DNA of 64,000 nucleotides from Nitriliruptorales bacterium (GCA_046263195.1 JBHELG010000108.1:2293-66292); one strand, 5' to 3'. Shown: positions 1-48,720, counted from the first letter of the stretch. Notes: generated by a model not told the origin, from the sequence alone. Made by a program: numbers and translations.

Positions 1-429
1 CCTCGCGACCCCGGGAACGCCGGGGCCGGCCCAGTGCGGCTCGTCCCAGAAGAGGCGGTCTGTCCCGGCCTCGATCGCTGCTTGGGTCCAGGTCCGCATG
101 TAGCTGCGGAACTCCGGTCGGTTGAGGCAGGCCGCCCCTACCCGCCGCCCGTCGTCGAGTACCTGGCCGAGCTCTGGACGAGCCGCCGTGAAGCGGCTCT
201 CCGCCTCACCGCCGAATACGAGGCCCACTCCCCACGGGTCCAACTGCACCTCCAGTCCCGCCTCGTGAGAACTGGCCACGATCCGTTCGATCGTGCGGGG
301 GTAGTACGCGAAGTCGTTCTCCGAGAAGGTGTGCAGCACGCCGCTGAAGCCTCGCGCCGCGAGGCCCTCCATGTCCGCTGCGGCGTGACGCAGGATGCGA
401 TTGCCGAAATATGCCGCGCCGATGGTCAC
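1..429 (-). CDS. Partial CDS (first 143 codons; continues past window start); uncharacterised, possibly TIM-barrel glycoside-hydrolase-like
   Basis: Absent from the ORF track because it runs off the edge. The reverse frame from GTG 429-427 is open to base 1: VTIGAAYFGNRILRHAAADMEGLAARGFSGVLHTFSENDFAYYPRTIERIVASSHEAGLEVQLDPWGVGLVFGGEAESRF...AIEAGTDRLFWDEPHWAGPG. Nearly every codon ends in G/C. The GTG overlaps the TGA of the upstream gene (GTGA, 426-429). The function guess rests only on the FWDEP (NEP-like) motif and the general look of the sequence. Confidence 0.5.
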   Translation of the reverse strand, partial: MTIGAAYFGNRILRHAAADMEGLAARGFSGVLHTFSENDFAYYPRTIERIVASSHEAGLEVQLDPWGVGLVFGGEAESRFTAARPELGQVLDDGRRVGAACLNRPEFRSYMRTWTQAAIEAGTDRLFWDEPHWAGPGVPGVAR

Positions 430-1463
430 TTCGAGTCCCACCCTCCCGTCGCCTGCGGTGACGTCCCGGAGTCGTGACCGCCTGGGCGCGTCCGCGGGTG
501 GAAGCTGAGCCCAGCGTCGGTGATCTCCGTGAGGAGCGAGCCCCAACGCTCCCGCTCACGGGCAGGGTCGACGAGCCATCGCAGCCCCTCGACCCAGGTC
601 CTCAGAGTCGTGCGGAAGGCGCCGTCGCGTTCAATGCGCGACAGCAGGTGGCGGAGGGCACGTGGGTCGCCGACAGGGAAGTAGCCGGGGTAATCCTCAC
701 CGAGCAGGCCGATGGAACCGGAGATACGCGTGGAGACGACCGGCACCGACGCTGCCAGGGCCTCCGAGACGACGTTTGCGCCGCCCTCAAGGCGTGAAGT
801 CAGGACGAGCAGACGACTCCGGGCCAGGATCCGTAGTGCCTCGCCCCGCGGAAGCTCCCCCACCCACGCGTAGCGGGGGTTGCGCTCGCTTTCCGCTCGA
901 GCCCGGTCGGCCATTCCCGGCTCGATCTCCCCACCCGCATGCACCACCTGGATCCTCGACTCTTCCGGGAGGTCACGTACGGCCTGGGCGGCGATGAAGG
1001 GGTCCTTGACGGAGCGAAGATGCGCGAGCAGAACCACCTCGAAGACGTCGTCGCGAGGCTGAGCCGGTGGGATCGGCTTGACGGACTGTTCGATGACCCT
1101 GACTCGCGATCGCAGCGCCGGTGGTACCTGCTCCAGCCCCAAGCGTTGCAGCACGACGATTCGGGAAGCGAGCTCGACCGAGCGGCGGGCGGAGGGGGAG
1201 TTGTCGAGGTCGCCGTAGAGATCGGTTCCCGTCAGGGCCACCACCAGAGGGGCGTCGGGCTGCATGCTGCGAAAACGGGCGATGGAAGGAGCGCTGCGCC
1301 GGGCATGCAGAGCCACGAGCACGTCACACGACCGCCCCTCGTACGCCTCGACCACAACCGCGTCGTGACCGAGCTCACACAACAGCTCTCGCCAGCGCAG
1401 GGCGGTTACACGGTTTCCGCTGTTGGTTCCCAGCGGGGCCGGCGTGACGATGCAGACCTTCAC
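426..1463 (-). CDS. senB: Glycosyltransferase, SenB-like selenosugar synthase (TIGR04348-type)
   Basis: Inside ORF 426..1865(-). Start placed at GTG 1463 (VKVCIVTPAPLGTNSGNRVTALRWRELLCELGH...), which overlaps the TGA of the EgtB-like gene (GTGA 1460-1463). The 134 upstream codons of the ORF overlap that gene and are Arg/Gly/Pro-rich noise. GT-B style C-terminus (LLVLTSRLEGGANVVSEALAASVPVVSTR). The SenB assignment comes from the N-terminal motif as I recall it plus context (EgtB-like gene and SelD nearby). Confidence 0.7.
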   Translation of the reverse strand: MKVCIVTPAPLGTNSGNRVTALRWRELLCELGHDAVVVEAYEGRSCDVLVALHARRSAPSIARFRSMQPDAPLVVALTGTDLYGDLDNSPSARRSVELASRIVVLQRLGLEQVPPALRSRVRVIEQSVKPIPPAQPRDDVFEVVLLAHLRSVKDPFIAAQAVRDLPEESRIQVVHAGGEIEPGMADRARAESERNPRYAWVGELPRGEALRILARSRLLVLTSRLEGGANVVSEALAASVPVVSTRISGSIGLLGEDYPGYFPVGDPRALRHLLSRIERDGAFRTTLRTWVEGLRWLVDPARERERWGSLLTEITDAGLSFHPRTRPGGHDSGTSPQATGGWDSK

Positions 1464-2782
1464 CTCGGCGCGCAGGTACGGAGTCCGGCAAAGACGTCTC
1501 GGCGGTCCGGTGTGAAGTAGTTGCGGTAGGTCGTGCGGACGTAGCGCGCGCGCGTCGCCCAGGCCCCGCCCCGCAACACCTTGCGGGTCCCGAACCACGG
1601 CTCCGAGTTGTCCCGATAGGCGTCCGGTTCGAAGTTCGGGTACGGCAGGAACGTGCTGGCCGTCCACTCCCACACGTTGCCGATCATCTGCCGGCAGCCG
1701 AAGGGGCTGTCGCCCGCCGGGAATGCCCCGACGTCGACGGTGCCCATGGATCGCCAATCGACGTTCGCCTGCTCGGGTCCGGGCTGGTCGTCGCCCCAGG
1801 GGTAACGTCGCTTGCGGGGAACACCTCCGCTCGTGTCCACGCCCCCCGTCGCGGCCAGTTCCCACTCCGCCTCGGTCGGCAGTCGCCTCCCCGCCCAGCG
1901 GCAGTACGCCTCGGCCTCATACCAGCAGACGTGGATGACCGGCCTGTTCGCCTCGAGGTCGACCCAGCTGTCGAAGTGGCGTCTCCGCCAGCCTCCTGGG
2001 TACCGGCGCCAGTAGACGGGGTGTTCGGCTTGCACGGCTCGGCGCCAGCGCCACCCCTCCGGGCTCCACAACTCCGCCCGCTCGTAGCCTCCGTCCGCCA
2101 CGAAAGCAGCGAACTCCTCCTGGGTCACCGCGGCCCGAGCGATCGCGAAAGGGGCGACATCGACCGGGTGGCCCCACTTCTCGTTGTCGTAGACGAACGG
2201 CTCAGCCCCAGTCGCGCCGAGCAGAAAGGAGCCGCCTGGCACGTCGACATCGCCTTCCAGTTTCCCGGCGACGAGCGCCTCCCCCGGGCCTGTTCCGCTC
2301 AGACCGTCGAGGTTGGGCGGTGCATAGCCCAGCGTCTGGCGCGTGTAGGTGATGGCCTCCGTGTGGGTGTCCTCGTGGAAGACCGTATACAGGGCGAAGT
2401 GTCGCACGACAGGGGAGGCATCGGACCGCGACAGTCGCGCCAAGACGCGGTCACGGACCTCGATCATGTAGTCGAGGGTCCTCTCGCGGGGGGGAAGGTC
2501 GAGGAACCAGCGCGTGTCGTGGGGAATCGCCGCCGAGTCCCACAGCGCATCGCAGTGGGGGATGAGGGGGGGCTCGCTCAGTGCGGAGCGCAGCAGGAAG
2601 CGCTCCTGGAACCAGGCGAGGTGCCCGATCTCCCACAACAGCGGGTTCACCGTGGCCAGCATCGGGCCGATGAGCTGTTCGTCGTCGAGGTCCGCCACGA
2701 GCTGCATGACCCGTTGACGGGCGTCGCGCACCCACTCAGCTAGGTCGGGGATCCACTCTGACCACGCCGCTGAGGCGCGCAC
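1460..2782 (-). CDS. senA: EgtB-family sulfoxide/selenoxide synthase (DinB_2 + FGE-sulfatase domains), SenA-like selenoneine synthase
   Basis: ORF 1460..2782(-), 440 aa. N-terminal DinB_2 domain with iron-ligand histidines (LWEIGHLAWF, FHEDTHTEA). C-terminal FGE-sulfatase fold (FVYDNEKWGHPV, WYEAEAYCRWAGRRLPTEAEWE, IGNVWEWT, RGGAWAT). GTG 2782 is preceded by AGGAGGAAG. SenA and EgtB cannot be told apart by eye; context favours SenA. Confidence 0.8.
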   Translation of the reverse strand: MRASAAWSEWIPDLAEWVRDARQRVMQLVADLDDEQLIGPMLATVNPLLWEIGHLAWFQERFLLRSALSEPPLIPHCDALWDSAAIPHDTRWFLDLPPRERTLDYMIEVRDRVLARLSRSDASPVVRHFALYTVFHEDTHTEAITYTRQTLGYAPPNLDGLSGTGPGEALVAGKLEGDVDVPGGSFLLGATGAEPFVYDNEKWGHPVDVAPFAIARAAVTQEEFAAFVADGGYERAELWSPEGWRWRRAVQAEHPVYWRRYPGGWRRRHFDSWVDLEANRPVIHVCWYEAEAYCRWAGRRLPTEAEWELAATGGVDTSGGVPRKRRYPWGDDQPGPEQANVDWRSMGTVDVGAFPAGDSPFGCRQMIGNVWEWTASTFLPYPNFEPDAYRDNSEPWFGTRKVLRGGAWATRARYVRTTYRNYFTPDRRDVFAGLRTCAPR

Positions 2783-2950
2783 CTACTTCCTCCTGACCGG
2801 TCCTAGCCGTCCGCTCGGGTTTACCCGCGCGTCACCTCTTGGCCACGACAAGGTGTCCGCTGAGTTTGGCATCCCCGCAGCGGACGGCCACCATAGCCCC
2901 CCATCGGTCCGGCTGTAGCCGCGCCGAGCCAGCCGGACCGTGGAGCCCAG

Positions 2951-3580
2951 GTGGAACAGTTCCTGACCGAGACCATCACCGAGACGGTCCTGCGTCACGG
3001 TTACGTCGCCGTGTTCGTGCTCATGGTCGCGGAGTCCGCCCTCATTCCGGTGCCGAGCGAGGTCACGATGCTCTTCGGCGGGGCGCTCGCGAATGTCGCT
3101 CTCGTCGAGCATCTGGGTGCGACGAGCGGACCGCTGAACTTCTGGATGGTTGGCCTGCTGGGCGCGATCGGCAACCTCGTCGGATCATGGATTGCGTACG
3201 CCATCGGAAGAACGGGGGGGCGGTCACTAGCCGAGCGGCTGGGCCGCTACCTCCTCATCCGCCACCACCATCTCGACCGCGCCGAGGTCTGGTTCGATCG
3301 CCATGGCAACGCCGCTGTCTTCGTCGGACGGCTACTGCCGGTGGTCCGCACCTTCATCAGCCTTCCTGCCGGCATCGCCGCCATGGGCTTCGTGCGCTTC
3401 TCCGTCTACACCTTCGTTGGCTGCGTCCCCTGGTCCTTGGGCCTGGCCGCGATCGGCTACGGGTTGGGCGCGAACTGGGAGAGGGTTGTGCCATGGTTCC
3501 GGCCGGTGAGCCTCGTGATCGCGGCGGCTGTGATCCTCGTCGCCATATGGTGGTTATACAACGCCGTCCTGGAGCGTTAA
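2951..3580 (+). CDS. DedA/SNARE-associated family inner-membrane protein
   Basis: ORF 2951..3580(+), 209 aa. GTG start with GGAG 5 nt upstream. Multi-TM protein with the typical DedA core (VAESALIPVPSEV, FDRHGNAAVFVGRLLPVVRTFISLPAGIAAM). Divergent from senA and directly upstream of selD. Confidence 0.8.
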   Translation: MEQFLTETITETVLRHGYVAVFVLMVAESALIPVPSEVTMLFGGALANVALVEHLGATSGPLNFWMVGLLGAIGNLVGSWIAYAIGRTGGRSLAERLGRYLLIRHHHLDRAEVWFDRHGNAAVFVGRLLPVVRTFISLPAGIAAMGFVRFSVYTFVGCVPWSLGLAAIGYGLGANWERVVPWFRPVSLVIAAAVILVAIWWLYNAVLER

Positions 3581-3706
3581 GGGACAGCAGGCTTCCACCA
3601 GCGGCTGGCTCGACGTCGATCGCGCTTCCCTGATCCCTAGACTCCCTCACTTGGGCGCTCCACCCGGCCCCTTCGGGGGCCTTCCCGGCGGCCCTACGGA
3701 GGTGTT

Positions 3707-4744
3707 GTGAACCCCACGACCCGGCGACTCACGGAGTACAGCCACGGCGCCGGCTGAGCGTGCAAGCTCGCCCCACGCGAGCTGGCGCAGGTCCTGCGCC
3801 ACCTGACCTCGGCCAGCCATCCAAACCTGCTGGTCGGCACCGAGACCGGCGATGACGCGGCAGTCTGGCGGCTCGACGACGAGCGCGCGCTCGTCGTCAC
3901 TGCGGACTTCATCACGCCGCTCGTCGACGATGCCAGGACCTGGGGACGGATCGCGGCCATCAACTCAGCCTCCGACGTCTATGCCATGGGAGGACGTCCC
4001 ATCCTCGCCCTCAACCTCGTGGGATGGAACACGGCGGAGCTGCCCACTGACCTCCTCGACGAGGTGCTCGCCGGAGCTGACGAGGCCGCCGTCGAGGGTG
4101 GGTGGGTGACGGTCGGCGGTCACACCGTCGACGACCCCGAGCCGAAGTTCGGCCTGGCGGTGGTCGGAGAGGTGCGCCCCGACCGCCTGCTGAAGAACTC
4201 GGGGCTGCGGGACGGGGATGTGCTCGTGCTCACGAAGCCGCTGGGCGTGGGAATCATCGCCACCGCGTTGAAGCGCGACGCCGCAGCGGTGGAGGTGGTC
4301 GAATCGGCGGTCGCCTCCATGCTGCGATCAAACGCCGCAGCGTCACAGGCTGCGCTCGCAGCGGGAGCGACCGGCGCGACTGACGTCACCGGGTTCGGGC
4401 TGCTCGGGCACCTCGGCAAGATGGCCGAGGTATCGGGGGTCGACGCGACCATCCACACCGCCGCCGTGCCGATGCTGGCGGGAGTCCGCGAACTCGCCGC
4501 GGCTGGCTATATCCCCGGCGGGACCCGCCGTAACCTCGAGTGGGTACGCGACCGCCTGGTCGTTGACGCGGTCGACGAGGTGACCCTTGTGCTCCTGGCG
4601 GACGCGCAGACGTCGGGCGGGTTGGTGTTCGGTGTGTCAGCTTCCGAGGCGGATAGGACGCTGGCCGTTCTGCGCGACGGGGGGGATGCGGCCGTGGTGA
4701 TCGGTGAAGCTCGTGGCGGAGCCGGCCGACTCATCCTGCGTTGA
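3707..4744 (+). CDS. selD: Selenophosphate synthetase SelD (SenC-like), predicted selenoprotein with in-frame TGA (Sec) at 3755-3757
   Basis: The ORF track gives only 3986..4744, the C-terminal 252 aa (DVYAMGGRPI, GGHTVDDPEPKFGLAVVG, LTKPLGVG, TDVTGFGLLGHL, AQTSGGL). The same frame is open back to GTG 3707 (GGAGG at 3698-3702) except for TGA 3755-3757. It reads VNPTTRRLTEYSHGAG-U-ACKLAPRELAQVLRHL, colinear with E. coli SelD RLTQYSHGAGCGCKI, with the TGA at the Cys17 position. Length is 345 codons versus 347 aa in E. coli. Confidence 0.8.
3760..3788 (+). promoter_or_regulatory. Candidate bacterial SECIS hairpin immediately 3' of the selD UGA
   Basis: The stem AGCUCGC (3765-3771) pairs with GCGAGCU (3777-3783) around the loop CCCAC. 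It is extended by 4 more pairs (3760-3763 with 3885-3888 mis-numbering avoided: 3760-3763 pair with 3785-3788) across one A/G mismatch. The hairpin starts 3 nt after the UGA. Structure only; I cannot score it against a SECIS model. Confidence 0.4.
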
Positions 4745-4831
4745 CGTGCCGCGGGGGTGTCACGCGATCGGCGCTGGATCGTTGGAGTAGCGGACAGTCA
4801 TCAGCCCATCCCGCGTGAACGGAGACCAGTC

Positions 4832-5761
4832 GTGGCGGATGTCAAGGTCATCTACATCCTTGGCTACGCGCGCGGCGGCAGCACGATCCTCGGCAACATC
4901 CTGGGCGAGCAGGATGGCTTCTTCCACGCCGGGGAGCTCTGCTACCTCTGGAGCCGCGGCAACCGGGGCGAGCGATCCCGCCGCTGCGGCTGCGGGCTGC
5001 GGGTACCCGACTGTCCCGTATGGAGCCCGGTGCTGTCCTCTCTCCTGTCGGGTCCTAACGACGCACTCGCTGCCGCGGACGGGGAGGAGCGGGTCCGCTC
5101 CCGCTCAGGATGGCCGCTGGTTTGGGCTCCTTCCCGGCGTACCGAGGCGCGCTTCGCCCCCTTTCTCGACCTGACCGAGCGTCTCTACCGCCGGGTCTTG
5201 GACGTCACTGGCGCCCGCGTCATCGTCGACTCGTCGAAGAACCCGCGATACGGGGCGCTGCTCGCCATGATCCCCGCTTTCGATGTTCGCTTCGTTCACT
5301 TGGTCCGCGACCCGCGGGCGATGGTCTACTCGCGGCAGCGCAGGCGGATGGACCGTGAAGGAGCGGGGGCCCGTATCCACAAGGGCACTCTCGCGAAGGA
5401 CGCGTTGGAGTGGGCGGGGAAGAACCTCGAGGCCGAGGTGGTGCGGCGGCGAAGTTCGACCCCGACGCCGCTCGTTCGGTACGAGGATTTCAGCCGTCAG
5501 CCTGCGACCGTGGTCGAACAGGTTCTTGACGCGGTCGACGAGCCGCAGGCGCCCGTCGCCTTCCTGACCTCGGACGCTGTGCAGTTGGGCACGAACCACA
5601 CCTGCGGCGGCAACAATCGTGTGCGCGCACACAGTGGCCCCGTACACATACGGCAAGATACGGCTTGGCTCGAGGTCATCCCCCCCGCCCACCGCCAGAC
5701 CGTGGCTTGGCTGACCCTCCCCGTGCTGCGCCGCTACGGCTACCCTCTGCGGGTTTCCTGA
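4832..5761 (+). CDS. Sulfotransferase family protein (PAPS-dependent type)
   Basis: ORF 4757..5761(+). Preferred start is GTG 4832 (GGAGA 6 nt upstream); the alternative is GTG 4757. N-terminal 5'-PSB loop ILGYARGGSTILG, 3'-PB region VHLVRDPRAMVYSRQRR, Cys cluster RRCGCGLRVPDCPVW. Lies 87 nt downstream of selD on the same strand. Confidence 0.7.
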   Translation: MADVKVIYILGYARGGSTILGNILGEQDGFFHAGELCYLWSRGNRGERSRRCGCGLRVPDCPVWSPVLSSLLSGPNDALAAADGEERVRSRSGWPLVWAPSRRTEARFAPFLDLTERLYRRVLDVTGARVIVDSSKNPRYGALLAMIPAFDVRFVHLVRDPRAMVYSRQRRRMDREGAGARIHKGTLAKDALEWAGKNLEAEVVRRRSSTPTPLVRYEDFSRQPATVVEQVLDAVDEPQAPVAFLTSDAVQLGTNHTCGGNNRVRAHSGPVHIRQDTAWLEVIPPAHRQTVAWLTLPVLRRYGYPLRVS

Positions 5762-5889
5762 CGCCTAGGCGCTACCCTGAGTCGCCAAAAGGGGACCGCC
5801 AGCCTGTGCGCGCCATGCGCACGGAGCAGTGGTCATGTGCCGCGGATGAAGGCTCCAACCCCGGCTGGATCGTCCGGACGTTTGCGTCC

Positions 5890-6119
5890 TCCATCACCTG
5901 TCGCTACAAGAGACGGGTGATGGACACATCGGTCGGCCGCTCCTGCCCTCACCCCGTCGCCGGGTACGCCCGGCGACTGCGTGTGTCCGTCTCACACCCC
6001 GTTCTGAGCCTCCTCCTGCTCATCCTCCTTTGATGCCGCGGCGCCGTCCCGCCCCATACGACGGCGACTGCGGAGGAATCTTCACCGGGGATGGGGAAGC
6101 TGGCATGTACAGGAGGAGG
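5890..6119 (+). promoter_or_regulatory. leuA leader region: Leu-rich leader peptide ORF (5920 or 5983 to 6033) plus hairpins and an anti-Shine-Dalgarno match
   Basis: A short ORF ends ...HPVLSLLLLILL-TGA at 6031-6033, with 7 Leu in its last 9 codons. CCTCCTCCTG (6009-6018) is the exact complement of CAGGAGGAGG (6110-6119), the leuA SD. Hairpins lie at 5890-5924 (13 bp) and 6036-6073. Confidence 0.5.
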
Positions 6120-6126
6120 AAAGCGA

Positions 6127-7752
6127 ATGGGAACCGTCAACGTTGGCGAGCATCCGGACCTTGATGCGATCAGGGGCGCTGTCGGTCACGACGTCACCAT
6201 CTTCGACACGACCCTGCGGGACGGCGAACAGGCTCCGGGGATTTCCCTCGACGCCCGCGAGAAGGTCGAGATTGCAACGCAGCTCGCACGCTTGAACGTC
6301 GACGTGGTAGAGGCGGGATTTCCCGCCGCAAGCAACGGGGACTTCGCGGCGGTGAAAGCGGTTGCCGAAGAAGTGGGCGCCAGCGACGAGGAGGGCACGC
6401 CACCCGTCATTGCTGCGCTCGCCCGCTGCGTGGACTCCGACATCGAGCGTGCCGCGAAGGCCATCGCCCCCGCTCGACGCAACCGCCTCCACGTCTTCAT
6501 CTCCTCGTCGGAGATCCACCGCATTCATATGCTGCATGCCTCGGAGCAGGACGTCCTCGAGCGAGCGGTGCGAGCCGTCCAGCTCGCGAGGAGCTTCAGC
6601 GAAGACGTCGAGTTCAGTCCCCAGGACGCTACGAGAACCGACTTCGCCTTCCTCGTGGATCTCGTGGCTGCGGCGGTCGAGGCCGGCGCCACGACCATCA
6701 ATATTCCCGACACGGTCGGGTACGCGCTTCCGCACGACTTCGGTCGCACAATCGCGGAGTTGCACTATCGGGTTCCCGCCATCCGTGAGCGCGGGGTGGT
6801 GGTCTCGGTCCACTGCCACAACGACCTCGGCCTCGCCGTCGCGAACTCGCTCGAAGCTGTCCGCAACGGTGCGCGGCAGGTCGAAGTCGCGGTGAACGGG
6901 ATCGGGGAGCGGGCCGGCAACTGCTCCCTCGAAGAGGTCGTCATGGCGATCAGGACACGGGCCGACCTGCTCGACGTCGGTACCGGGGTCAACACGACCG
7001 AGATAACTCGCACCTCCCGACTCGTCAGCACCCTGACCGGCTACTCGGTGCAGCGCAACAAGGCGGTGGTTGGAGCGAACGCCTTCGCACACGAGTCAGG
7101 CATTCACCAGCACGGAGTGCTGCAGGAACGTCAGACGTACGAGATCATGCGGACGGAGGATGTCGGTGCCGAAGGCTCGCAGATCGTGCTCGGAAAGCAC
7201 AGTGGTCGGCATGCCTTCCGCAAGGCGGTCAGCGAGCTCGGCTTCGAGCTGAACGAGGACGAACTGTCCCGGGCCTTCCTGCGGTTCAAGGATCTGACCG
7301 ACCGCAAGAAGGAGGTCGATGAGCGCGACTTGGAAGCCATCGTCTCCGCCGAGACCCACGTCACGAGTGAGGACAGCTACGAGCTCCTCTCGCTGACGGT
7401 AGCCGGCGGGACGACCGCGGCCCCATGCGCCACGGTCGAAGTTCGCGGTGCGGACGGAGTGATACGCACGGCCACCGCGACGGGCGATGGCATGGTGGAC
7501 GCAGCCTGCGGGGCGATCCGGGCCGCGCTCGGAAGAAACGGCATCCGCCTGGTCTCCTTCGAGGTCGCAGCTGTGACAGAGGGGGTCGACGCCCTCGGTG
7601 ACGTGACCGTGCAGGTCGAGGTGGAGGACGGCTCGCGTTTCACCGGGCGCGGCGTTTCCACCGACATCGTCGAGGCGAGCGCCCGAGCCTATATCGATGC
7701 CTTCAACCGGTCCCTGAGGCTGAAGCCCAGGGCGGGGGAGTTCCGGCCGTGA
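6127..7752 (+). CDS. leuA: 2-isopropylmalate synthase
   Basis: ORF 6091..7752(+). Start moved to ATG 6127 behind AGGAGGAGGA. HMGL-like N-terminus [13 protein letters not shown], metal site [21 protein letters not shown], and a C-terminal LeuA regulatory domain. Confidence 0.9.
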
Positions 7753-31436: not shown

Positions 31437-31486
31437 AAGATCCGGCGCCTCGCCCGCACCCGGTGTCAAACCGAGAGGACGACCCG

Positions 31487-33100
31487 GTGAGCGAGCAGGA
31501 CCAACTCGGCCGCATGGGGCCGCGATTTGCCCTCTACGACACCACCCTGCGTGACGGCACCCAGCGCAGAGGTGTCAACCTCACGGTGGACGACAAGCTG
31601 AAGGTCGCTCGGCAGATTGACGAGCTGGGCGTTCACTTCATCGAGGGTGGTTGGCCGGGTGCGAACCCGAAGGACACCGAGTTCTTCCGCCGCGCAGCCG
31701 AGGGCGACCTGGTCCTGAGGCACGCGACGCTGACAGCCTTCGGTGCCACCCGGAACGTGCGCAAGAGGGCCGAGGACGACCCCTTGCTCCGGGCGCTGCT
31801 CGACGCTGGCACGCCGGTCGTGTGTATCGTGGGGAAGTCCTGGGGCTATCACGTCGAGGGAGCTCTTGGGGTTTCTCTCGAGCAGAACCTGGCGATGGTC
31901 GCCGAGACCGTCGCCTTCCTGACATCGGCCGGGCGCCGCGTCTTCTTCGACGCCGAGCACTTCTTCGACGGCTATGCGCGCGACCGCGCCTACACGCGGG
32001 ACGTCGCCCTGGTGGCGGCCGAGGCCGGCGCCGAGTGCGTCGTCCTCTGTGACACGAACGGTGGCGCGATGCCCTGGGCCGTGCAGCCGGCGGTGGCGGA
32101 CATGGTCACCATGCTTCCCTGTGAAGTTGGAACGCACTTCCACGACGACGGTGGCTGTGCCGTCGCAAACTCGCTCATCAGTGTCGAGGCAGGAGCGGTT
32201 CACGTGCAGGGGACGGCGAACGGGCTGGGTGAACGCTGCGGCAACGCCAACCTGTTCACCGTCCTCGCTGACCTCCAACTCAAGCGTGGCCTCGAGCTGG
32301 TGCCGCCCGAGCGGCTCGTCCGCATGACGACCGTGGCCCACGCGGTGGCCGAGCTCTGCAACCAGGCCCCCCCGATGGGACAGCCCTACGTCGGGTCAGG
32401 CGCCTTCGCGCACAAAGCCGGCCTGCACGTCTCGGCGCTCGCGAAAGCCGCCGACATGTACCAGCACGTTGACCCGTCTCTCGTCGGCAACCACCAGCAC
32501 CTCGTCGTCAGCGAACTGGCCGGACGGGCCACCATCGCGCTCAAGGCCCGGGCGCTCGGCCTCGAGCTGGACGACGCAACCTCCACCCGCGTGCTGGAGG
32601 AGGTCAAGCGACGGGAACATCTCGGCTGGAGCTACGACGCGGCAGACGCATCCTTCGCGCTCCTATTGCTGCGCCTGACCGGACGGCTGGGCGAGGAGCC
32701 GTTCCGTCTGCAGCATTTCCGGGTGACGGTCGGAGGGGGCGGGGCCGGCTCCAACTCGGAGGCGGTCGTGGCGGTCGAGATCGAAGGTCAGCGCAGGCTC
32801 GGCGCCGGAGAAGGCAATGGTCCTGTTGACGCACTCGACCACGCCTTCCGCAACGCCGCCAACGGGACCTGGCCCGATCTCGACCGCGTCCAGCTCGCCG
32901 ACTACAAGGTCCGCATCCTCGAAGCATCCCACGGCACCGACGCCGTCACCCGGGTGCTCGTGACCACCACGGATGGGAAGGAAACCTGGGACACGGTAGG
33001 CGTCCACCCGAACATCGTGGAAGCTTCCTGGATGGCGCTTGCTGACGCGTACGCTTGGGCGCTCGCACGCGAATCGTGGCCGGGACGAGAGCTCCAGTAG
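31487..33100 (+). CDS. cimA: (R)-citramalate synthase (LeuA-family, TIGR00977-like)
   Basis: In ORF 31463..33100. GTG 31487 lies 7 nt after GAGAGGA; alternatives are GTG 31463 and ATG 31514. Motifs YDTTLRDGTQRRGVNLTVDDKLKVARQIDELGVHFIEGGWPGANPKD and HFHDDGGCAVANS, plus a C-terminal LeuA-type regulatory domain. Confidence 0.85.
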   Translation: MSEQDQLGRMGPRFALYDTTLRDGTQRRGVNLTVDDKLKVARQIDELGVHFIEGGWPGANPKDTEFFRRAAEGDLVLRHATLTAFGATRNVRKRAEDDPLLRALLDAGTPVVCIVGKSWGYHVEGALGVSLEQNLAMVAETVAFLTSAGRRVFFDAEHFFDGYARDRAYTRDVALVAAEAGAECVVLCDTNGGAMPWAVQPAVADMVTMLPCEVGTHFHDDGGCAVANSLISVEAGAVHVQGTANGLGERCGNANLFTVLADLQLKRGLELVPPERLVRMTTVAHAVAELCNQAPPMGQPYVGSGAFAHKAGLHVSALAKAADMYQHVDPSLVGNHQHLVVSELAGRATIALKARALGLELDDATSTRVLEEVKRREHLGWSYDAADASFALLLLRLTGRLGEEPFRLQHFRVTVGGGGAGSNSEAVVAVEIEGQRRLGAGEGNGPVDALDHAFRNAANGTWPDLDRVQLADYKVRILEASHGTDAVTRVLVTTTDGKETWDTVGVHPNIVEASWMALADAYAWALARESWPGRELQ

Positions 33101-38254: not shown

Positions 38255-38292
38255 CGTGATCGGTCGCGTGGGAGATCATGCGACCGACGAAT

Positions 38293-38365: not shown

Positions 38366-38395
38366 CGTAGGATGACCACCTCTCAGGTGGCCGCA

Positions 38396-39623: not shown

Positions 39624-41015
39624 TCAGGGCTGCATGCGTGCGGCCCCTGCCATGTTTCGGCCTTGCCGCTCGATCGCATCTTCGATACGCACCAGCACGG
39701 ACTTCCAAGACCATTCGGCCACGGCTCTCTCCCGCGCACGGCGCCCAAGCTCTCGTCGCAAAGCGCCGTCCGTGACCAGCCGCATGATCGTGGCGGATAG
39801 GGCCTCTGGGTCACCGGGCGGAACGAGTAGAGCGTCCCTGCCTTCGTTCAGTAGCCGCGCCGGTTCGCCGATGTCCGGTGCGATGACCGGCCGGCCGCAG
39901 GCCATGTACTCGCGCAACTTGAGCGGGGAATAGTGGTAGTGGCGTTCGGCGGCGGTCACGAGCACCGCCACGTCCATGGCGTTGAGGTGGCGTGGCACGT
40001 CGATGTGGGCTACGGCCCCGGTGAACCTGGTGCACGCTGCGATCCCCAGTTCCGACGCGCGCGCTCGAACCCGCGCCAGGTCGTGCCCCGAACCCACCAG
40101 CAGGAGGACGACGTCCACCCGGCCGAGGCGAGCGACGGCCTCGAGGAGAATGTCCAGGTCGTGAAAGCGGTGGAAGCTACCGAGCCATCCGATCACGAAG
40201 GCATCGCTGGAGATACCGAGCTCGCCTCGCGTGTGTTCGCGGCCCCTGTCAGGGACGAACACTTCCGTGTCGACCCCATTGGGGACAACCACGACGCGGT
40301 CGGAGGGCAGGCCCAGGCGACGGACATCTTCCGCGACCTCGTCGCTTACGCACGTCACGACTTCGGCGCGCCGCAGGATCCTTCGCTCGCAGAGGCGCTC
40401 CAGGAGCAGCCCCCATAGCGGGCGCCTGACTCCCCATCTCTCCCCTTCGCGGACCAGAGCCGCGTGGACGGAGACGACGAACGGCGCCCCGGTCCGGCGG
40501 GCTAGACGCTCTCCAGCTACGAACCCGAGTTCGTGACGCTGCCAGATGTAGGGGGGGTTCACGCTCGGAAGAGGTACGGAACCGAGGGATCGGTTGAGGC
40601 GCGCCACCTCCACAAGTCGCAGAGCGTCCTTCAGAGCGGTCTTGAAGACCAGCGGCAGGCGGGCGGCGATGCCTGCCCTGGGCCGGGCTTGCGGGGTACC
40701 TTGGGAGGCGGCCTGGACCTCACGCGGGTTCAGCCACCCGGCTGGGCTCAGTAGCCAGGCATGTCCGTGTCGTTCCCGCGCCGCGAGGGTCAAGCCTGCG
40801 GCGCCGAACAGCCCCGCAACTGGACGGCGGAGCCGCGTCGGGTCGAACGGCACCACGAATACCGGTCCGCTCGCCGCTCTGGCCGCTGACGGGAGACCAC
40901 TCACCCGGTCGGTACGCACACCCTGGTGCTCGGCCGCGCCCGTGCCCCGCTCCCCGTCACACGCCATAGGCTTGCGGACTGCGGCCGCTAGGTGCCCCTC
41001 CTGGGAGACGCCCAC
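39624..41015 (-). CDS. Family 4 (GT-B) glycosyltransferase
   Basis: ORF 39624..41015(-). GTG 41015 lies 2 nt after the methyltransferase stop, behind AGGAAGGGA. Motifs VVVVPNGVDTEVF and SPLKLREYMACGRPVIAPDIG. Confidence 0.75.
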   Translation of the reverse strand: MGVSQEGHLAAAVRKPMACDGERGTGAAEHQGVRTDRVSGLPSAARAASGPVFVVPFDPTRLRRPVAGLFGAAGLTLAARERHGHAWLLSPAGWLNPREVQAASQGTPQARPRAGIAARLPLVFKTALKDALRLVEVARLNRSLGSVPLPSVNPPYIWQRHELGFVAGERLARRTGAPFVVSVHAALVREGERWGVRRPLWGLLLERLCERRILRRAEVVTCVSDEVAEDVRRLGLPSDRVVVVPNGVDTEVFVPDRGREHTRGELGISSDAFVIGWLGSFHRFHDLDILLEAVARLGRVDVVLLLVGSGHDLARVRARASELGIAACTRFTGAVAHIDVPRHLNAMDVAVLVTAAERHYHYSPLKLREYMACGRPVIAPDIGEPARLLNEGRDALLVPPGDPEALSATIMRLVTDGALRRELGRRARERAVAEWSWKSVLVRIEDAIERQGRNMAGAARMQP

Positions 41016-41017
41016 GC

Positions 41018-41740
41018 TTAGGGTCCCTTCCTGTTCGGCTCAGCAGCCGGTGTTGAGCCGCCCGGCAGACGCTGCTCAGCCCGTGGTTGCGCTATCGCGA
41101 ACGACTTCTCCCCGTCAGGGTGAATCTCCACTTTCCAGCCCTGTTCTCGCAATCTTCGGATGATTGCTGCCTCACCATCCCGATGGGCGTCGTCCAGCAG
41201 GACCGTCGCGGTGGTCACCCGCTCGCCGAGGACCTCCCAGAGCCCCCACCTCCCTCCGACGATGCCGCCAGGCGGGCCGTCACAGATCACGAGATCAAAC
41301 TGATCCGGCAACGCGGGCGGGACCGCGTACCACTCGATGTCCCCGTACCGCACCAGTGGCACGTTGAGGACTGCAGGCCCCATCGCCCTGAAGAACTCCG
41401 ACCTGTGCCGGATGGCGTCCGCCCAGTCAGCTTCGTGCTCCAGGCTCCACACCGGCGCTGTGACGCCAGGAGTCAGGGCCAAAGCCAGCGTGGTAAGGCC
41501 TGATCCACACTCCAGGATCGGCCCGGGGGAGGCGGCCACGTACTCGAGCGCCATCAGCAGGTATCGGTCTCCTGCCCTGAAGCTCGCATTCCCCCAGCCG
41601 ATGGCCAGCCGCTGGACGGCTACCGGCGAGGGCCCTTGCCGGCGCAACTCGTGAGCACCGAGACGAAAGAGAGCTGAACGCCGAGCGGACGCGAGCGGGC
41701 GACGCACACGTGCGGGCACATAGTCTCGGATCCTGGTCAC
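41018..41740 (-). CDS. Class I SAM-dependent methyltransferase
   Basis: ORF 41018..41740(-). SAM motif I ILECGSGLTTLALAL; post-I acidic WSLEHE; FDLVICDGPPG. Confidence 0.65.
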   Translation of the reverse strand: MTRIRDYVPARVRRPLASARRSALFRLGAHELRRQGPSPVAVQRLAIGWGNASFRAGDRYLLMALEYVAASPGPILECGSGLTTLALALTPGVTAPVWSLEHEADWADAIRHRSEFFRAMGPAVLNVPLVRYGDIEWYAVPPALPDQFDLVICDGPPGGIVGGRWGLWEVLGERVTTATVLLDDAHRDGEAAIIRRLREQGWKVEIHPDGEKSFAIAQPRAEQRLPGGSTPAAEPNRKGP

Positions 41741-41980
41741 GCCTCAGAAAATCTCCATGGAGGGGGAACCACTGTCCTTACCGTCTGCTGACCGGTTCCC
41801 GGACATTGACTCGATGACTGTACGGCCGCAGGTCTGTCCTCCCAGCCTGGCAGGGGAGTGGTTGACGGGAGGATCGGTGACAGTGGAGAGTACGCGACGT
41901 CCACGAGGATGTGTGGCGGCTCCGGACGGCACGACGAACACGCCGGGACCGATACTCCCTTGCCCGCTGAGGCGGACATC

Positions 41981-42889
41981 TCACGCACGGGCCCAGACCT
42001 CCTCCGCCCAGTTCCACGGCGTCGGGCCGCCCAGGGACCGGACGACCCCGAGCTCCGGCGCGAGCTCCCGTCGCAGTCGGCTGATCGTCTTCTCGTCAAT
42101 AGCCCAGAGCGCCGGGTCGAAATCTGACATGCGTCGCTGGGTCCAGCGACGTGCCCGGTCTTTGACCTCCGCCGACAGGAGCCGAGTCAGCGCCCGGTAC
42201 CAAGACGTGCGCTGCAGCCGCGCGATCGGAGGCAGCGTGGCGCTGGCGTCGAGCGTCGTATTGGCCGTCCAGTCGAAGTCGTGGGGAGCACGTTCGGGGT
42301 CTGCACCGATGTGTGCCACGGCTTGGCGCACGGTTTCGCTGCGTCGATCCCTCAGGTGCTCGGAGTAGCGCACGAGCAGCTGCGAGCTGTCGAAGTAGTC
42401 CAGGTAGCGTTCGAGCTGAGACCCATAGCGGCTCGGCGCGAGGTAACTGTCGTCCTCTTTGATCACCCGCATCAAAGGGCGCGTCTCGCGTCCACGAAGG
42501 AGCTGATGCCGATACTGAGAGACGACTCGCTCGATCGGGTCTCGGAGCAGATAGATGAGCCTGGCGTCGGGGATCGTCGCATGGATGAGAGAAGGTGCCC
42601 TTGTGAAGATGGGGTACTTGGTGTAGCTGGTTGACGCCTCGCCCAGGAGGGCACCCTTCGGGAGCCTCCCTCAACAGCTGCGCGTACCAGGCGAGGCCCG
42701 GTCCCAATTGCCCTCCGCCACGAAGAACTCGGGCTCCTTCGGGTTCGTGATGAACACGTCGGGATGGGATGCGAGGTAGGAGGCGAGACTGCTGGTTCCG
42801 GACTTCATCGCCCCGATGATGATGAAGTCCGGGAGTCTCAGAGAATCCTGCCCCAGACCGGTCCGCATCGAAGAAGCTTGCCCTGTCAT
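41981..42889 (-). pseudogene. Sulfotransferase disrupted by two compensating 1-nt indels (premature TGA at 42671-42673)
   Basis: ORFs 42671..42889 (N-terminus, PDFIIIGAMKSGTSSL PAPS loop) and 41981..42475 (C-terminus) share one frame. The conserved GLAWYAQLLREAPEG segment between them lies in a second frame (ORF 42096..42707). Adding one G at run 42697-42699 and removing one G at run 42654-42656 restores a continuous 302-aa sulfotransferase. Confidence 0.65.
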
Positions 42890-43079
42890 CCCTCTACGTC
42901 ACCGCATAGCGGTAGGGCGTGGCGGCAGAGCGGCGCATGCGCTTCCCATCCGGCGTCCCAGAGCCTCTGACGCGGCCAGCAAAACAGTAATCCTGCCCGT
43001 GTTCGAGGTCGAGGGACGTGTGCACCGGCCTTCCGGAGGCGAATCATTTGGAGCCTCATGTGAGGCCCGCGCTCCGAAG

Positions 43080-43760
43080 TCAGTCCGAGCCTGGTTTGAG
43101 CGAGGACCCGTCTTCCGCGTCCGCGTTCGGCGGCTCGCCCCACTCGACATCCATGACACCGGGACCAGGGCCGTCAGGTGGGGACGGAGAGTGCTCGGTC
43201 AGCCACGTTCGGACCGCCGCGGCCACCGCAGCGTTGCCTCCTTTCAGTTCGTGGCCCGCCCCCTCGATCCACACATGCGTGACCGGGCCGGTGATGCCGG
43301 CTGAGGCGTCTTCGAGCTCGCGAGGGCTGGCGAAAGGGTCCTTGGTACCCGATATGAACAGGCAGGGTGTTGCGAGGTTGGCAAAGTGCTCCGTTCGAAC
43401 CTGCTGCGGGCGCCCCGGAGGGTGGAGCGGATACGCGATGAGCACGAGTCCGCAGGCCCGGAGACCCTGGGCCACAGCCATCGAGCACATCCGCCCACCC
43501 ATGGAACGGCCTCCGAGGACAACCTGATCGGGCGGTACCCCGGCCCGGGCGGCCAGGGCGCCGGCTTCCTCGATCACGCACGCCACCATTCGGGACGTCG
43601 CGTCTGGTCGTTTGCGGCCGGCCCGCCGATAAGGGAAGTCGACCCGTGCGACCGCCAACGGCGCTACGGCCGCCTCGATGGCCAGCAAGGAAGGATGGTT
43701 GCGGTCGCTGCCCGCGCCCGGCGTGAGCAGCAGAGCCCTCGGCCACGCCGCGAACCTCAC
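43080..43760 (-). CDS. Alpha/beta-fold hydrolase (dienelactone-hydrolase-like)
   Basis: ORF 43080..43760(-). Nucleophile elbow GGRSMGG; LLTPGAGSDRNHP; LFISGTKDPF. Confidence 0.7.
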   Translation of the reverse strand: MRFAAWPRALLLTPGAGSDRNHPSLLAIEAAVAPLAVARVDFPYRRAGRKRPDATSRMVACVIEEAGALAARAGVPPDQVVLGGRSMGGRMCSMAVAQGLRACGLVLIAYPLHPPGRPQQVRTEHFANLATPCLFISGTKDPFASPRELEDASAGITGPVTHVWIEGAGHELKGGNAAVAAAVRTWLTEHSPSPPDGPGPGVMDVEWGEPPNADAEDGSSLKPGSD

Positions 43761-43928
43761 GGGCCAAAACCACGCATCCCCGGACGGTACCAGCGAGGGG
43801 CGGGAACCATGCGGGGAGCAGCGCTGGAGACTGAACCACGCCTTCCGGTCACGGCGGGGAGTCGGAGATTGTCACCGTCTTTGAACCCAGGTGTCATCGG
43901 GCTGCAACATCGGGTCTCTACCCTGCCC

Positions 43929-43970
43929 CTCGTGTACGAGAAGAGGCATCTCGTGTACGAGAAGAGGCAT
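43929..43970. repeat. Perfect 2 x 21-bp tandem direct repeat (CTCGTGTACGAGAAGAGGCAT), each unit carrying the inverted repeat CTCGT-GT-ACGAG
   Basis: Read directly: 43929-43949 equals 43950-43970. Located in the 242-bp gap between the hydrolase start (43760, minus strand) and the small plus-strand ORF at 44003. Confidence 0.9.
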
Positions 43971-44002
43971 GCGGAAGTGGCGGGGACGGGATCGGAGCAG
44001 AA

Positions 44003-44197
44003 GTGGAGAACTGCGAGCCGAAGCTATCCGAGTTGCTGAGCCGGATCGGTCCGATGGCCTGGACGCCGGGATGGCTGGGGGTGCTCAACCCGACAGCCCC
44101 CTTCCGGGGCCGCGAAGCAGGGCCCGTGGACGTCATCAGCCCGCTGGTCACCGAGTTGATCGCCTACGAGGTCGTCTCCCAACCCGACGCCGCTTGA
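44003..44197 (+). CDS. Small hypothetical ORF (64 aa)
   Basis: ORF 44003..44197(+). GTG lies 5 nt after GGAG. Very strong G/C third-position bias. It is the only plus-strand ORF inside a minus-strand glycan locus. No family recognised; it may not be expressed. Confidence 0.3.
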   Translation: MENCEPKLSELLSRIGPMAWTPGWLGVLNPTAPFRGREAGPVDVISPLVTELIAYEVVSQPDAA

Positions 44198-44343
44198 AGT
44201 TCGTTCTGTCGCGCACATGGAGGGCCTGGACACCGAACGCGGCCGGAACCGTCGCGGCAAGTTTAGGCAGAAGGGGTTCCCAAGCCGAAAGCGCGACCTG
44301 CGCCCCGTCGCGGATCACATTCTCGAGCGCCCCTTCATGCCAT

Positions 44344-45222
44344 TCATCGCAGCTCGAGTTCGGGCGGTAGGGGCTGCTCGTAACCGTGTAGGAAGGAAAA
44401 CCGTGCCGTGAGGTCTTGCACGTCCTCGCGGACGTGGTTGGGCCAGGCGACCTCCTGACTCGTGCGATGCGGCGACTCCAACACGACGCCGGCGCAGGCC
44501 TCGAGGTAGTCGGGGTAGGGGGCGAGCCCGAATAGGTCACACAGCCGCGACAGCTCGCGTCGTGGGTCGGCGACGAGGTCCTCGTGGCGCAGGTGCAGAA
44601 GATCCTCCCCCACGTCGGCCCTCAACCGTTCGACCACCTTGTAGCGCAACGTGTAGTACTCGAGCGCTTGCTCGAAATCTCCGCCGTTTCTGCGCGCCAA
44701 CGTCGCGATGTTGTCGAAAGGGTTGCGAGTCACGAGAACGATCTTGACGGGAACTCCGACGCGTGCCCTCAGTCGACGCAGTAGATCGGGATCCTCGCCG
44801 AGGCGCCCGGTGGTTTTTCCGCCCTTCTTGTCGCCGATGACCCTGATGGTGTTGTACCGACCCTGCCATTGACCGGATATCCGGTAGGAGTAGCCGGTCC
44901 AGCCGGACCCGGTTGTGGCGAAGTCTCTGGCCCGGCGGATCAACATCCCGTACAAGACCGGCCGCGGATAGCGCAGGAAAGCGAGCGCGTCGAGTTCGTG
45001 CGCCACCACGGCCTCGGGGTGGGCATCGAGCATCTGGCCCACGAGCGAGTGCCCGCTGCGTGCGTAGCCGACGAACAGGCAGAACGTCTCCACGTCCTCG
45101 AGAGCACGCAGGTGGGGAAGGACGGCGAGGCTGCCGCGTGCGGCCATGGAGGCCCTTCTGGCCATGCTGCGGATCTGCATGCTGCGACCTCCGCTGCCGC
45201 TGAGAAAGAAACCCGGGGTCAT
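44344..45222 (-). CDS. Sulfotransferase family protein
   Basis: In ORF 44344..45495(-). ATG 45222 overlaps the upstream TGA (ATGA). PAPS loop FVGYARSGHSLVG; VLVTRNPFDNIAT. Confidence 0.7.
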   Translation of the reverse strand: MTPGFFLSGSGGRSMQIRSMARRASMAARGSLAVLPHLRALEDVETFCLFVGYARSGHSLVGQMLDAHPEAVVAHELDALAFLRYPRPVLYGMLIRRARDFATTGSGWTGYSYRISGQWQGRYNTIRVIGDKKGGKTTGRLGEDPDLLRRLRARVGVPVKIVLVTRNPFDNIATLARRNGGDFEQALEYYTLRYKVVERLRADVGEDLLHLRHEDLVADPRRELSRLCDLFGLAPYPDYLEACAGVVLESPHRTSQEVAWPNHVREDVQDLTARFSFLHGYEQPLPPELELR

Positions 45223-46352
45223 CCCCGCGGCGCCCGGAAGAGCCCGTCGATCCATTCGAGTTGGCGCCGTCGGCTCCGCCGCAACCGGTAGCGTCGCCCT
45301 TGCCCGCTCGGTCCGAGACGGGCCAAACGGAGGACGGTCGCAATTGGTCCGGGAACGGATTCGCTGTAGCCGAAAGCCTGCATCTCGCGCCGGCAGATGG
45401 CAGCGATCGCAGTGGCCTGGCGTGGGCTTAGCTGGTTGCGCCAGGCCTCGACGCGCTCGGTTGTCACCTGTCCTTGGGTGCCTTGCTTCCACCACTCCCA
45501 GGACTGGACGAAGCTTGATGACGCCCTCAAGGTGGCAGTCCCCTCGGGGCGCTCGCCATGCCGGCTCATCAGTAAGCCCTTCAGGGCTTCACGGGCCGAG
45601 TCGGGGGCCGCGACGACGTCCTCGTACCGCAGCACGAGGCAGCGATCGTGGCCTAGTTCGGTGCGGGCCTGTCGAATCAGGCGCTGGTCCTGACGCCACA
45701 TCTCAGCCAAAGTGACGTGATGCTTCATCCCCCACGGCATCGCAAGATTCGACGCGATGACAGCGCGAGGGTCTCGCACGACGGCGACGACTTTCAGATC
45801 GGGATGAGCCTCGGTCAGTGGCCGCCACCAGCGAAGGTGAGTCGGGGTCTTTTCACCATAGATCTCCCCCTCACCGGCAAGGTGACGGACGAGGGCCCCG
45901 AAGAGATCGACGAGCGAGTCGCACCGCCCGCCCAACGTGTCGAGGACCACGTCGACATCGAGGTCCAGCTCCCTTGAGGTCTCCAGTGCACCGTAACGTC
46001 GCAGTTCCTCGCGCAGCGCCACCCGTCCGAGCGGCAAGCGCCGACGACGGACCAACTCCGGGACAAAGAGGCTGAAGAAGTGGGTTTCTGGTGGCATGAC
46101 AACGCCTGGTAGTTCGCAGGCGAGTCGCTGCACGAGCGTCGTGCCCGAGCGGGGGGTCCCCACGATGACGAAATGGGGAGCCGGCTGTGAAGGGGAAGGT
46201 TCCGATCCAACCGTGCGCCCGCTCGCTCTGCGTGTCAGGCCGTCCCGCCTGTGCTCTCGAAGTCCACCCGTCGCCCGCCGATACGCCGGGGCGCCCGGAG
46301 ACTCGCCTGTCGAGCTGCCGAAAGACTGTGCCACGGGGTCAGCCAACTCCAT
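45219..46352 (-). CDS. Sulfotransferase family protein
   Basis: ORF 45219..46352(-). PAPS loop FVIVGTPRSGTTLVQRL; 3'-PB VAVVRDPRAVIAS. The start overlaps the upstream GT gene by 14 nt. Confidence 0.75.
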   Translation of the reverse strand: MELADPVAQSFGSSTGESPGAPAYRRATGGLREHRRDGLTRRASGRTVGSEPSPSQPAPHFVIVGTPRSGTTLVQRLACELPGVVMPPETHFFSLFVPELVRRRRLPLGRVALREELRRYGALETSRELDLDVDVVLDTLGGRCDSLVDLFGALVRHLAGEGEIYGEKTPTHLRWWRPLTEAHPDLKVVAVVRDPRAVIASNLAMPWGMKHHVTLAEMWRQDQRLIRQARTELGHDRCLVLRYEDVVAAPDSAREALKGLLMSRHGERPEGTATLRASSSFVQSWEWWKQGTQGQVTTERVEAWRNQLSPRQATAIAAICRREMQAFGYSESVPGPIATVLRLARLGPSGQGRRYRLRRSRRRQLEWIDGLFRAPRG

Positions 46353-47640: not shown

Positions 47641-47733
47641 GGTGCTCTCCTGCAACGACACGAAGAAGCGGAGGGCTCACGAGAGCCGCCGCTGCGGAAA
47701 TGTCCCATATGGCCTCAAAGAGTAATTGTAGAG

Positions 47734-48720
47734 TTACCCTAAGTCGAGTGACGTGTGCCCCTCGTATCCCAGGCGGACCGTGGTGGCCTTCAGCTGGGGG
47801 ATGATCCTGCCGATCTCGTGCGCTCGATCGCGCCACTTCTCAGGACGCGGCGGGGAAACCGCGCCCACGGGGTGCTCGTTCAGGTGGCGGGCCCTGTCGA
47901 GGACCCTCTCACTGGGCGGCAGGTCGAATCGCTCCAACAGGCGGCTTACCTCGAGGACAGGTTCGGCGACCAGACGTTCGAATGCCACTTCCACCCAGGA
48001 GCCTGCGGGGAGGTACTGGCGATCAACGAGGGCCGTCTCGTTCGAGCGGACGTATTGCAGGGCCGCCACCTCGGCAAACGAGGAGCGGGCTCGCTCGCGC
48101 CACCCCGGCGGCAGGATGTAGCTCCACAGCCGTCCCCGGTACTCCGCCAGGTCGAGCGCCGTCGGCAGGCGATACGAGATCCCCCGACGGGCTTGCCAGC
48201 CCTCGATGAGGGAGCTGACTGTGTCCGGGCCGTCGCGCTTGATGAACACGAAGGTGGCGTCCGGAAACAGCGCGGCAAGGTAGGGGAGCCGCAACACGTT
48301 CTTCGGGGTCTTGTCGATGAAGCGCAGACCCTGGGAGATATGGCGGATGGCGGTGTAGAGGTAGCCACGCTCGCCTGCTGCAATGTCCTCCGCGGTGGCC
48401 CTGTCGGACGCCCATCCCTTGCGGCGGGGGTGCTGATAGTTGCTCCAGAGTATGTGGCCCTCTCCGGTCAGGCCCTGCAGGGCCTCATGACGACGGAGCA
48501 GATCGAACAGCATGCTGGTGCCGGAACGGGGGCAGCCCACGAGGAAGACCGGTGCCCGGGGCGGCTCATTGAAGCCCTGTCGTGCGGCGAGAGTCTGCAA
48601 CCGCAGCATCGCCGCGCGCCTGCGGGCCGCTTGGTGCAGGAAGGCCAGGTGCGTGCGTGCGTCCTCCACCTGTTTACGACGACTGCGGGTAGCACACACC
48701 AGTACACCCCGTTGTGCCAT
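47734..48720 (-). CDS. Sulfotransferase family protein
   Basis: ORF 47734..48720(-). PAPS loop VFLVGCPRSGTSMLFDLL; FVFIKRDGPDTVSS. The start could be the internal ATG 48609. Confidence 0.75.
   Translation of the reverse strand: MAQRGVLVCATRSRRKQVEDARTHLAFLHQAARRRAAMLRLQTLAARQGFNEPPRAPVFLVGCPRSGTSMLFDLLRRHEALQGLTGEGHILWSNYQHPRRKGWASDRATAEDIAAGERGYLYTAIRHISQGLRFIDKTPKNVLRLPYLAALFPDATFVFIKRDGPDTVSSLIEGWQARRGISYRLPTALDLAEYRGRLWSYILPPGWRERARSSFAEVAALQYVRSNETALVDRQYLPAGSWVEVAFERLVAEPVLEVSRLLERFDLPPSERVLDRARHLNEHPVGAVSPPRPEKWRDRAHEIGRIIPQLKATTVRLGYEGHTSLDLG

Follow-up and report, generated by a model that had tools for sequence, protein, structure and literature searches.

A probable selenoneine (sen) cluster with a predicted selenocysteine-containing SelD in a Nitriliruptorales actinobacterium

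What does an actinobacterium make with a selenophosphate synthetase gene (selD) that lies beside an EgtB-like gene and a glycosyltransferase (GT) gene? The question is raised by one end of a 64 kb stretch of DNA (hereafter, the window) from a metagenome-assembled genome (MAG) of Nitriliruptorales, where these genes share a locus of 66-71% GC with genes for a DedA membrane protein, a sulfotransferase and an uncharacterised protein coupled to the GT (X4). An earlier reading made without database searches (hereafter, the sequence-only reading) had taken the first three genes as a senABC-like locus for selenoneine-type compounds, the others as extra partners that could alter the product, and the arrangement as a sign that selenium ends up in a small molecule and not in protein or tRNA. 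Our results suggest that the locus is very probably a standard selenoneine (sen) cluster with neighbours that lie outside the pathway and with a SelD that itself contains selenocysteine (Sec).

SenA and SenB of the Nitriliruptorales locus

The sen cluster has been defined as an egtB homologue, a TIGR04348 gene and selD within 5 kb, with 827 examples (Kayrouz et al. 2022, bioRxiv 10.1101/2022.04.13.486033). Selenoneine synthesis was reconstituted in vitro in that study, selenoneine was made by a sen-bearing actinomycete and a sen-bearing beta-proteobacterium, and egtD or a putative selenate transporter gene adjoined a subset of the clusters (bioRxiv 10.1101/2022.04.13.486033). All three components occur in the window: profile searches with the SenA, SenB (TIGR04348) and SelD models passed every curated cut-off, and selD lies 2.2 kb from senB. 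Curated models, conserved active-site residues and tree placement all support the senABC assignment of the sequence-only reading.

The EgtB-family protein exceeds the cut-off of the SenA model (420 bits) by 82 bits and does not reach that of the EgtB model TIGR03440 (335.3 bits; cut-off 360). Its active-site residues are N46, E51 and H54; H88 and R91; H136, T139 and H140; Y389 and N392; and N421, Y422, F423 and R427, to be compared with a published 17-position composite SenA motif, xNEH--HRHxHYYN(F/Y)(F/Y)R (PMC11030361). The donor site is N-E-H plus H-R, the type shared by SenA and OvsA, as opposed to the S-D-H plus R-R of EgtB-I (PMC11030361), and the three-histidine triad (H54, H136 and H140) and the catalytic Tyr389 are in place. 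In a neighbour-joining tree rooted on EgtB-I and computed without bootstrap support values, the window protein is sister to the SenA proteins of Haloechinothrix aidingensis (locus L007) and a Propionibacteriales MAG (L010), within a large selenoxide-synthase clade separated by a long branch from EgtB-I (4x8b). This grouping agrees with the SenA call made earlier.

The GT matches the SenB equivalog model (cut-off 300 bits) and not generic GT4 models, and aligns with the V. paradoxus (Variovorax paradoxus) SenB structures (8k5u, 8jjn and 8fbx) at 207 bits. It keeps the residues aligned to V. paradoxus Gly19-Asn20, His58, Thr83-Gly84, Arg155 and the catalytic Lys158, which belong to the catalytic and selenophosphate-contact residues described for that enzyme (PMC11237966).

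The same data bear on the possibility that an ergothioneine (sulfur) EgtB gene, an unrelated GT4 gene and a housekeeping selD are adjacent by chance. The DinB_2 plus FGE-sulfatase architecture is common to EgtB, the EgtB model does give 335 bits, and a SelD with Sec is clearly also needed for selenoproteins (see below). Set against the sub-threshold EgtB score, the SenA-type donor residues, the SenB equivalog match, the long branch from EgtB-I and the lack of egtA, egtC or egtE nearby, such a chance assembly is hardly credible.

Several observations nonetheless weigh against a standard sen cluster. The source genome is a MAG, and the pathway is known here from sequence alone. Pfam scans and an egtD search of the 64 kb window turned up no such gene, and neither selA, selB nor tRNA-Sec was seen in it. 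Coupling with senB at the level of translation argues for co-expression of X4, a gene foreign to the three-gene core. Within SenA itself, the equivalent of Tyr366 is Asn392, the sole mismatch to the 17-position motif, and the nearest solved structure by sequence is OvsA (334 bits), ahead of EgtB-I (252 bits) and V. paradoxus SenA (230 bits).

The features of SenA, together with the missing egtD, would suit an OvsA-like (ovoselenol-type) or other non-selenoneine selenoxide synthase with a different selenoimidazole as its product, and the ovs cluster (OvsA/OvsM plus SenB/SenC; PMC11030361) draws on the same supply of selenosugar and has a selenoxide synthase closely related to this one. OvsA identity, considered as the top match in the PDB, was rejected on the substrate motif, and the wider alternative is very unlikely. 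By the published rule, the hercynine site is N-(F/Y)-(F/Y)-R in SenA and Q-A-Y in OvsA (PMC11030361); the window protein, with N421-Y422-F423-R427, fits the SenA rule (N-N-Y-F within Y-N-N-Y-F-R, where OvsA has M-Q-A-Y within YMQAYR). No OvsM-like methyltransferase lies within 1..6000, and the taxonomic range differs, OvsA being reported almost only from aquatic gamma-proteobacteria (PMC11030361). Among 77 homologues, the combination of Asn392 and Thr139 was found elsewhere only in L007 and L010, both of which have egtD directly upstream of senA, and the Tyr366 contact is reported to run through the backbone carbonyl (PMC11030361). V. paradoxus SenA (8k5i) scores low not through a difference in the active site but through the absence of ~55 residues (query 312-367), a segment retained in OvsA, EgtB-I, the window SenA and nearly all of the 77 homologues; judged by these alignments, the characterised V. 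paradoxus SenA is a short, atypical form of the family.

Among known clusters, those of V. paradoxus and Amycolatopsis palatopharyngis comprise the same three families, with adjacent and coupled senA and senB, selD less than 5 kb away and the same catalytic residues. The window locus differs from both in its SelD, which has Sec (UGA) instead of Cys and is encoded on the opposite strand behind dedA, in lacking an adjacent egtD or selenate-transporter gene, and in the glycosidase-like gene coupled to senB; from the Variovorax cluster it also differs in the long form of SenA (about 55 residues more) and in the Asn at the position of V. paradoxus Tyr366. The loci of the sister SenA proteins, L007 (8624..12224) and L010 (8865..14559), likewise have coupled senA and senB, but in the order egtD-senA-senB, and L010 has a major facilitator superfamily (MFS) transporter gene between senB and selD; the window has neither egtD nor an MFS gene in its locus. 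Both sister loci encode SelD with Cys, not Sec, and lack X4, DedA and the sulfotransferase.

To place the locus more broadly, we used 160 other sen loci, 80 with SenA from species-representative genomes (GTDB) and 80 with SenB from metagenomes. SenB was present in 68 of the 80 SenA loci and SenA in 62 of the 80 SenB loci; egtD was adjacent in 31 of ~160 loci, and selD lay within the flanks of 33 of the 160. In the GTDB and metagenome scans the best matches were 66% and 64% identical, so that neither yielded a close relative; the single one found, L082 from an Actinomycetota MAG, is a 6.5 kb contig that begins inside dedA.

If the chemistry of the characterised Variovorax enzymes is transferred here by homology, the Sec-containing SelD/SenC would make selenophosphate from selenide and ATP, and SenB would move the selenium onto UDP-GlcNAc or UDP-Glc to give a 1-seleno sugar. 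SenA, through its three-histidine iron site and Y389, would then oxidatively couple this selenosugar to C2 of hercynine, which would be supplied by an egtD outside the window, and the resulting selenoxide would eliminate spontaneously to selenoneine. Published in 2022, the pathway is already well established and is covered by standard annotation models, so this core finding, one more example from Nitriliruptorales, changes little.

SelD as a probable selenoprotein

The selD gene holds a feature that the sequence-only reading overlooked, namely a TGA at codon 17 (3755-3757), where the translation runs HGAG*ACKLAP, with Lys20 three residues on. Because this in-frame TGA interrupts the open reading frame (ORF), a mechanical ORF list gives only 3986..4744 for selD. 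The full gene starts at a GTG with GGAGG 4 nt upstream, and its product, scored with the stop replaced by Cys, passes the TIGR00476 cut-off of 125 bits. SelD is known to be dimorphic at this position (Sec or Cys17); the UGA of the window falls exactly at Cys17, with Lys20 after it and hairpins downstream. What sets it apart from the known Sec-containing SelD proteins is its place inside a sen cluster, a combination that recurs in 17 of the 33 other sen-linked selD genes, of which reference genomes contribute 5 of 21 and metagenomes 12 of 12.

The TGA is shared by the selD of L082, whose product is called at 345 residues, and across the 16 codons before it the two genes differ at four places, all synonymous. 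Two adjacent hairpins lie 10-45 nt past the UGA, the first at 3765-3783 and the second at 3784-3800 (GGCGCAG-GUC-CUGCGCC). Pairing in hairpin 1 is preserved in one relative (L143) by a C-G to U-A double change, and hairpin 2, with one G-C to C-G swap, persists in each of the six relatives aligned. Since these nucleotides code for conserved protein as well, the pattern gives the hairpins modest support. A permissive Rfam scan of 2700..3900 gave no match, including at the hairpins, and a scan of the whole window at gathering thresholds returned two tRNAs only. On this comparison the two hairpins are a candidate bacterial Sec insertion element (SECIS).

Taken together, the catalytic position, the conservation in 18 homologues across phyla, the synonymous-only change upstream and the hairpins make Sec the best reading of the TGA. 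A true stop, which would make selD a pseudogene, was rejected on the conservation pattern. Loci with such TGA-bearing selD genes include L009, L011, L035, L066, L082, L087, L090, L092, L093, L100, L121, L122, L133, L134, L143, L145 and L146, and many of these genes show a GGUC-looped hairpin ~12 nt past the UGA; proteobacterial sen-linked selD genes read RCGGCGAK, with Cys. By these counts, Sec-containing SelD appears to be common in sen clusters outside Proteobacteria. We met no discussion of Sec-containing SelD inside sen clusters in the sen-cluster papers covered.

An organism whose SelD contains Sec must have the machinery for Sec (selA, selB and tRNA-Sec), from which we infer Sec decoding in this organism. 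Here the sequence-only reading is not supported: selenium cannot be assigned to a small molecule rather than to protein or tRNA when SelD itself carries a UGA at Cys17 and therefore requires that machinery. Being itself a selenoprotein, SelD would not be dedicated to small molecules, and a single SelD very likely feeds both the selenoprotein and the small-molecule routes, which in these organisms would then use one source of selenophosphate. The point has practical consequences, since treating a UGA-bearing selD as a plain ORF in genome mining or heterologous expression yields a truncated gene, and for expression in an E. coli-type host the Sec would have to be replaced by Cys or a compatible SECIS supplied.

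Neighbours of the sen genes

If SenA, SenB and SelD form a standard sen cluster, do the other genes of the locus take part in it? The genes named in the sequence-only reading are all present at the positions it gave (Table 1), and its domain calls were upheld by Pfam and NCBIfam, the Pfam domains matched being DinB_2, FGE-sulfatase, Glycos_transf_1, AIRS, AIRS_C, VTT_dom and Sulfotransfer_3. Both translational couplings that it described are likewise real: senA and senB overlap by GTGA at 1460-1463, and a second GTGA overlap joins the stop of senB to the start of X4, so that senA, senB and X4 are translationally coupled, and X4 is probably co-transcribed with senAB. On the other side, the locus ends where leuA, leuC and leuD begin (6091).

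Table 1. Features of the sen locus and its surroundings, with the evidence for each call.
Feature	Position	Strand	Evidence or remark
X4 (fourth gene), first 143 codons	1..429	-	GTG start at 429; remainder beyond window edge
senB, selenosugar synthase (Se-glycosyltransferase, TIGR04348 family)	426..1463	-	TIGR04348, 380.6 bits
senA, non-haem-iron selenoxide (selenoneine) synthase, probable; DinB_2 + FGE-sulfatase	1460..2782	-	NF041186, 501.8 bits
senA-dedA divergent intergenic region, 168 bp	2783..2950	.	Coordinates; block conserved with L082
dedA, DedA/VTT-domain membrane protein	2951..3580	+	PF09335, 90.8 bits
selD/senC, selenophosphate synthetase, in-frame UGA (Sec17, best reading)	3707..4744	+	TIGR00476, 369.3 bits, stop replaced by Cys
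selD TGA codon 17, catalytic Cys17/Sec position	3755..3757	+	Translation; conserved in relatives
Two adjacent hairpins, candidate bacterial SECIS	3765..3800	+	Folding and comparison with relatives
Sulfotransferase, Sulfotransfer_3 family (PAPS-type)	4832..5761 (longest ORF from 4757)	+	PF13469, 41.8 bits

The picture of three genes around one divergent promoter stands only in part: the intergenic gap has exactly the length given and senA does border it, but selD does not, sitting instead behind dedA, 126 bp downstream on the same strand. We only infer a promoter function for the gap. A scan of 1..6300 for consensus sigma-70 promoters and terminators found nothing, a null to be expected in an actinobacterium of 68% GC. 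A block upstream of dedA (~2855-2900; GAGTTTGGCAT...GACGGCCACCATA) is conserved with L082, as is a block upstream of selD (3625..3650; CTTCCC..CCTAGACT) that includes TAGACT, resembling an actinobacterial -10 box, and on this basis selD may have a promoter of its own.

In the sequence-only reading, DedA, the sulfotransferase and X4 were put forward as extra partners that may change the product or its handling. In such an extended pathway, one or more of them would act on the selenosugar, on selenoneine or on selenium import, with a selenite importer (DedA), a sulfating tailoring step (the sulfotransferase) and a Se-glycosidase or an enzyme salvaging the sugar by-product (X4) as possible roles. 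The survey does not bear this out, since X4 and the sulfotransferase were found in none of the 160 other sen loci and DedA gave one weak match.

For DedA, the proposal can draw on a link between a DedA protein and selenite uptake in Ralstonia metallidurans (cited in PMC11422209). The best NCBIfam match of the window protein is, however, a lipid-carrier transporter, the undecaprenyl-phosphate transporter UptA, although at 130.8 bits its cut-off of 250 is not reached. DedA as a selenite importer was set aside: the literature link concerns one organism, and no association of DedA with selD appeared across the surveyed loci.

The sulfotransferase passes the PF13469 cut-off of 27 bits, and an identical (100%) Nitriliruptorales MAG protein of 309 residues (P0076) places its start at 4832. 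The family is large (>4500 homologues), and homologues of ~42% identity sit within Wzz/Wzx/Wzy/GT4 exopolysaccharide clusters; two paralogues in the window itself lie in a GT4-rich glycan cluster at 44-49 kb. A role in the pathway could be argued from L082, where the order dedA-selD-sulfotransferase is conserved and the sulfotransferase is 73% identical. The shared order continues into leuA and leuC, however, and synteny that takes in such housekeeping genes points to shared ancestry rather than function.

For X4, sequence searches of Pfam, NCBIfam and the PDB gave sub-threshold hints, GHL6 and DUF4838 at E ~0.02-0.1, and fold comparison alone was informative. Its visible part has no family match in Pfam or NCBIfam. 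The family has >2500 homologues of ~330 residues, all named 'hypothetical' and covered by no Pfam or NCBIfam model; among homologues P0196-P0309 the motifs FGGE, FWDEP and CxCxxC are invariant. A homologue 70% identical to X4 (P0287) is modelled by AlphaFold (pLDDT 92.6) as a (beta/alpha)8 barrel, for which beta-amylase, GH35, GH5 and GH20 barrels are the best PDB matches (TM 0.6-0.69), so that X4 is predicted to be a glycoside-hydrolase-like TIM barrel. In five distinct contexts, the neighbours of X4 homologues are GntR/UTRA, AnmK, GHL10, sugar-ABC, a MurQ-like SIS protein and NagA, with sen genes in none of the five, and the family therefore looks like an uncharacterised enzyme family of amino-sugar recycling or catabolism. 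Loci with X4 homologues are L081, L083, L084 and L165-L170.

This picture also supplies what can be said for X4 as a pathway enzyme. SenB uses UDP-GlcNAc and the pathway releases a GlcNAc-derived by-product (bioRxiv 10.1101/2022.04.13.486033), and a glycosidase-like barrel whose relatives sit in operons for MurNAc/GlcNAc-type amino sugars, encoded by a gene whose start overlaps the senB stop, might be a lineage-specific fourth sen enzyme of seleno-GlcNAc chemistry that cleaves the selenoether of hercynyl-SeGlcNAc, a dead end, to give selenoneine, or that salvages the by-product. With five of five contexts free of sen genes, in addition to the survey, this role is improbable; if true, a family of >2500 members that lacks a Pfam model, and that is possibly worth study in its own right, would gain its first function. 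An extended pathway as a whole is unlikely too, as homologues of the proposed partners belong to amino-sugar operons and exopolysaccharide clusters. The likeliest reading of DedA, the sulfotransferase and X4 is as lineage-specific neighbours outside the selenoneine pathway, whose functions concern the envelope or amino sugars.

Further features of the window

The glycan cluster with the two sulfotransferase paralogues spans 39624..48720 on the minus strand and is of an exopolysaccharide type, with GT4 genes at 39624-41015 and 46339-47661 and Sulfotransfer_3 genes at 44344-45495 and 47734-48720; this content suggests a sulfated polysaccharide as its product. Two LeuA-type genes (HMGL-like plus LeuA_dimer) occur at 6091..7752 and 31463..33100, one of them beside leuC and leuD, and the second is perhaps a citramalate synthase. 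A class-I tRNA synthetase gene of Glu/Gln type (36225-37766) is probably gltX and precedes tRNA-Gln(CTG) and tRNA-Glu(CTC) at 38183-38366. After this tRNA pair, on the opposite strand, comes an ORF of 370 residues with an HNH_3 endonuclease domain (38396-39508).

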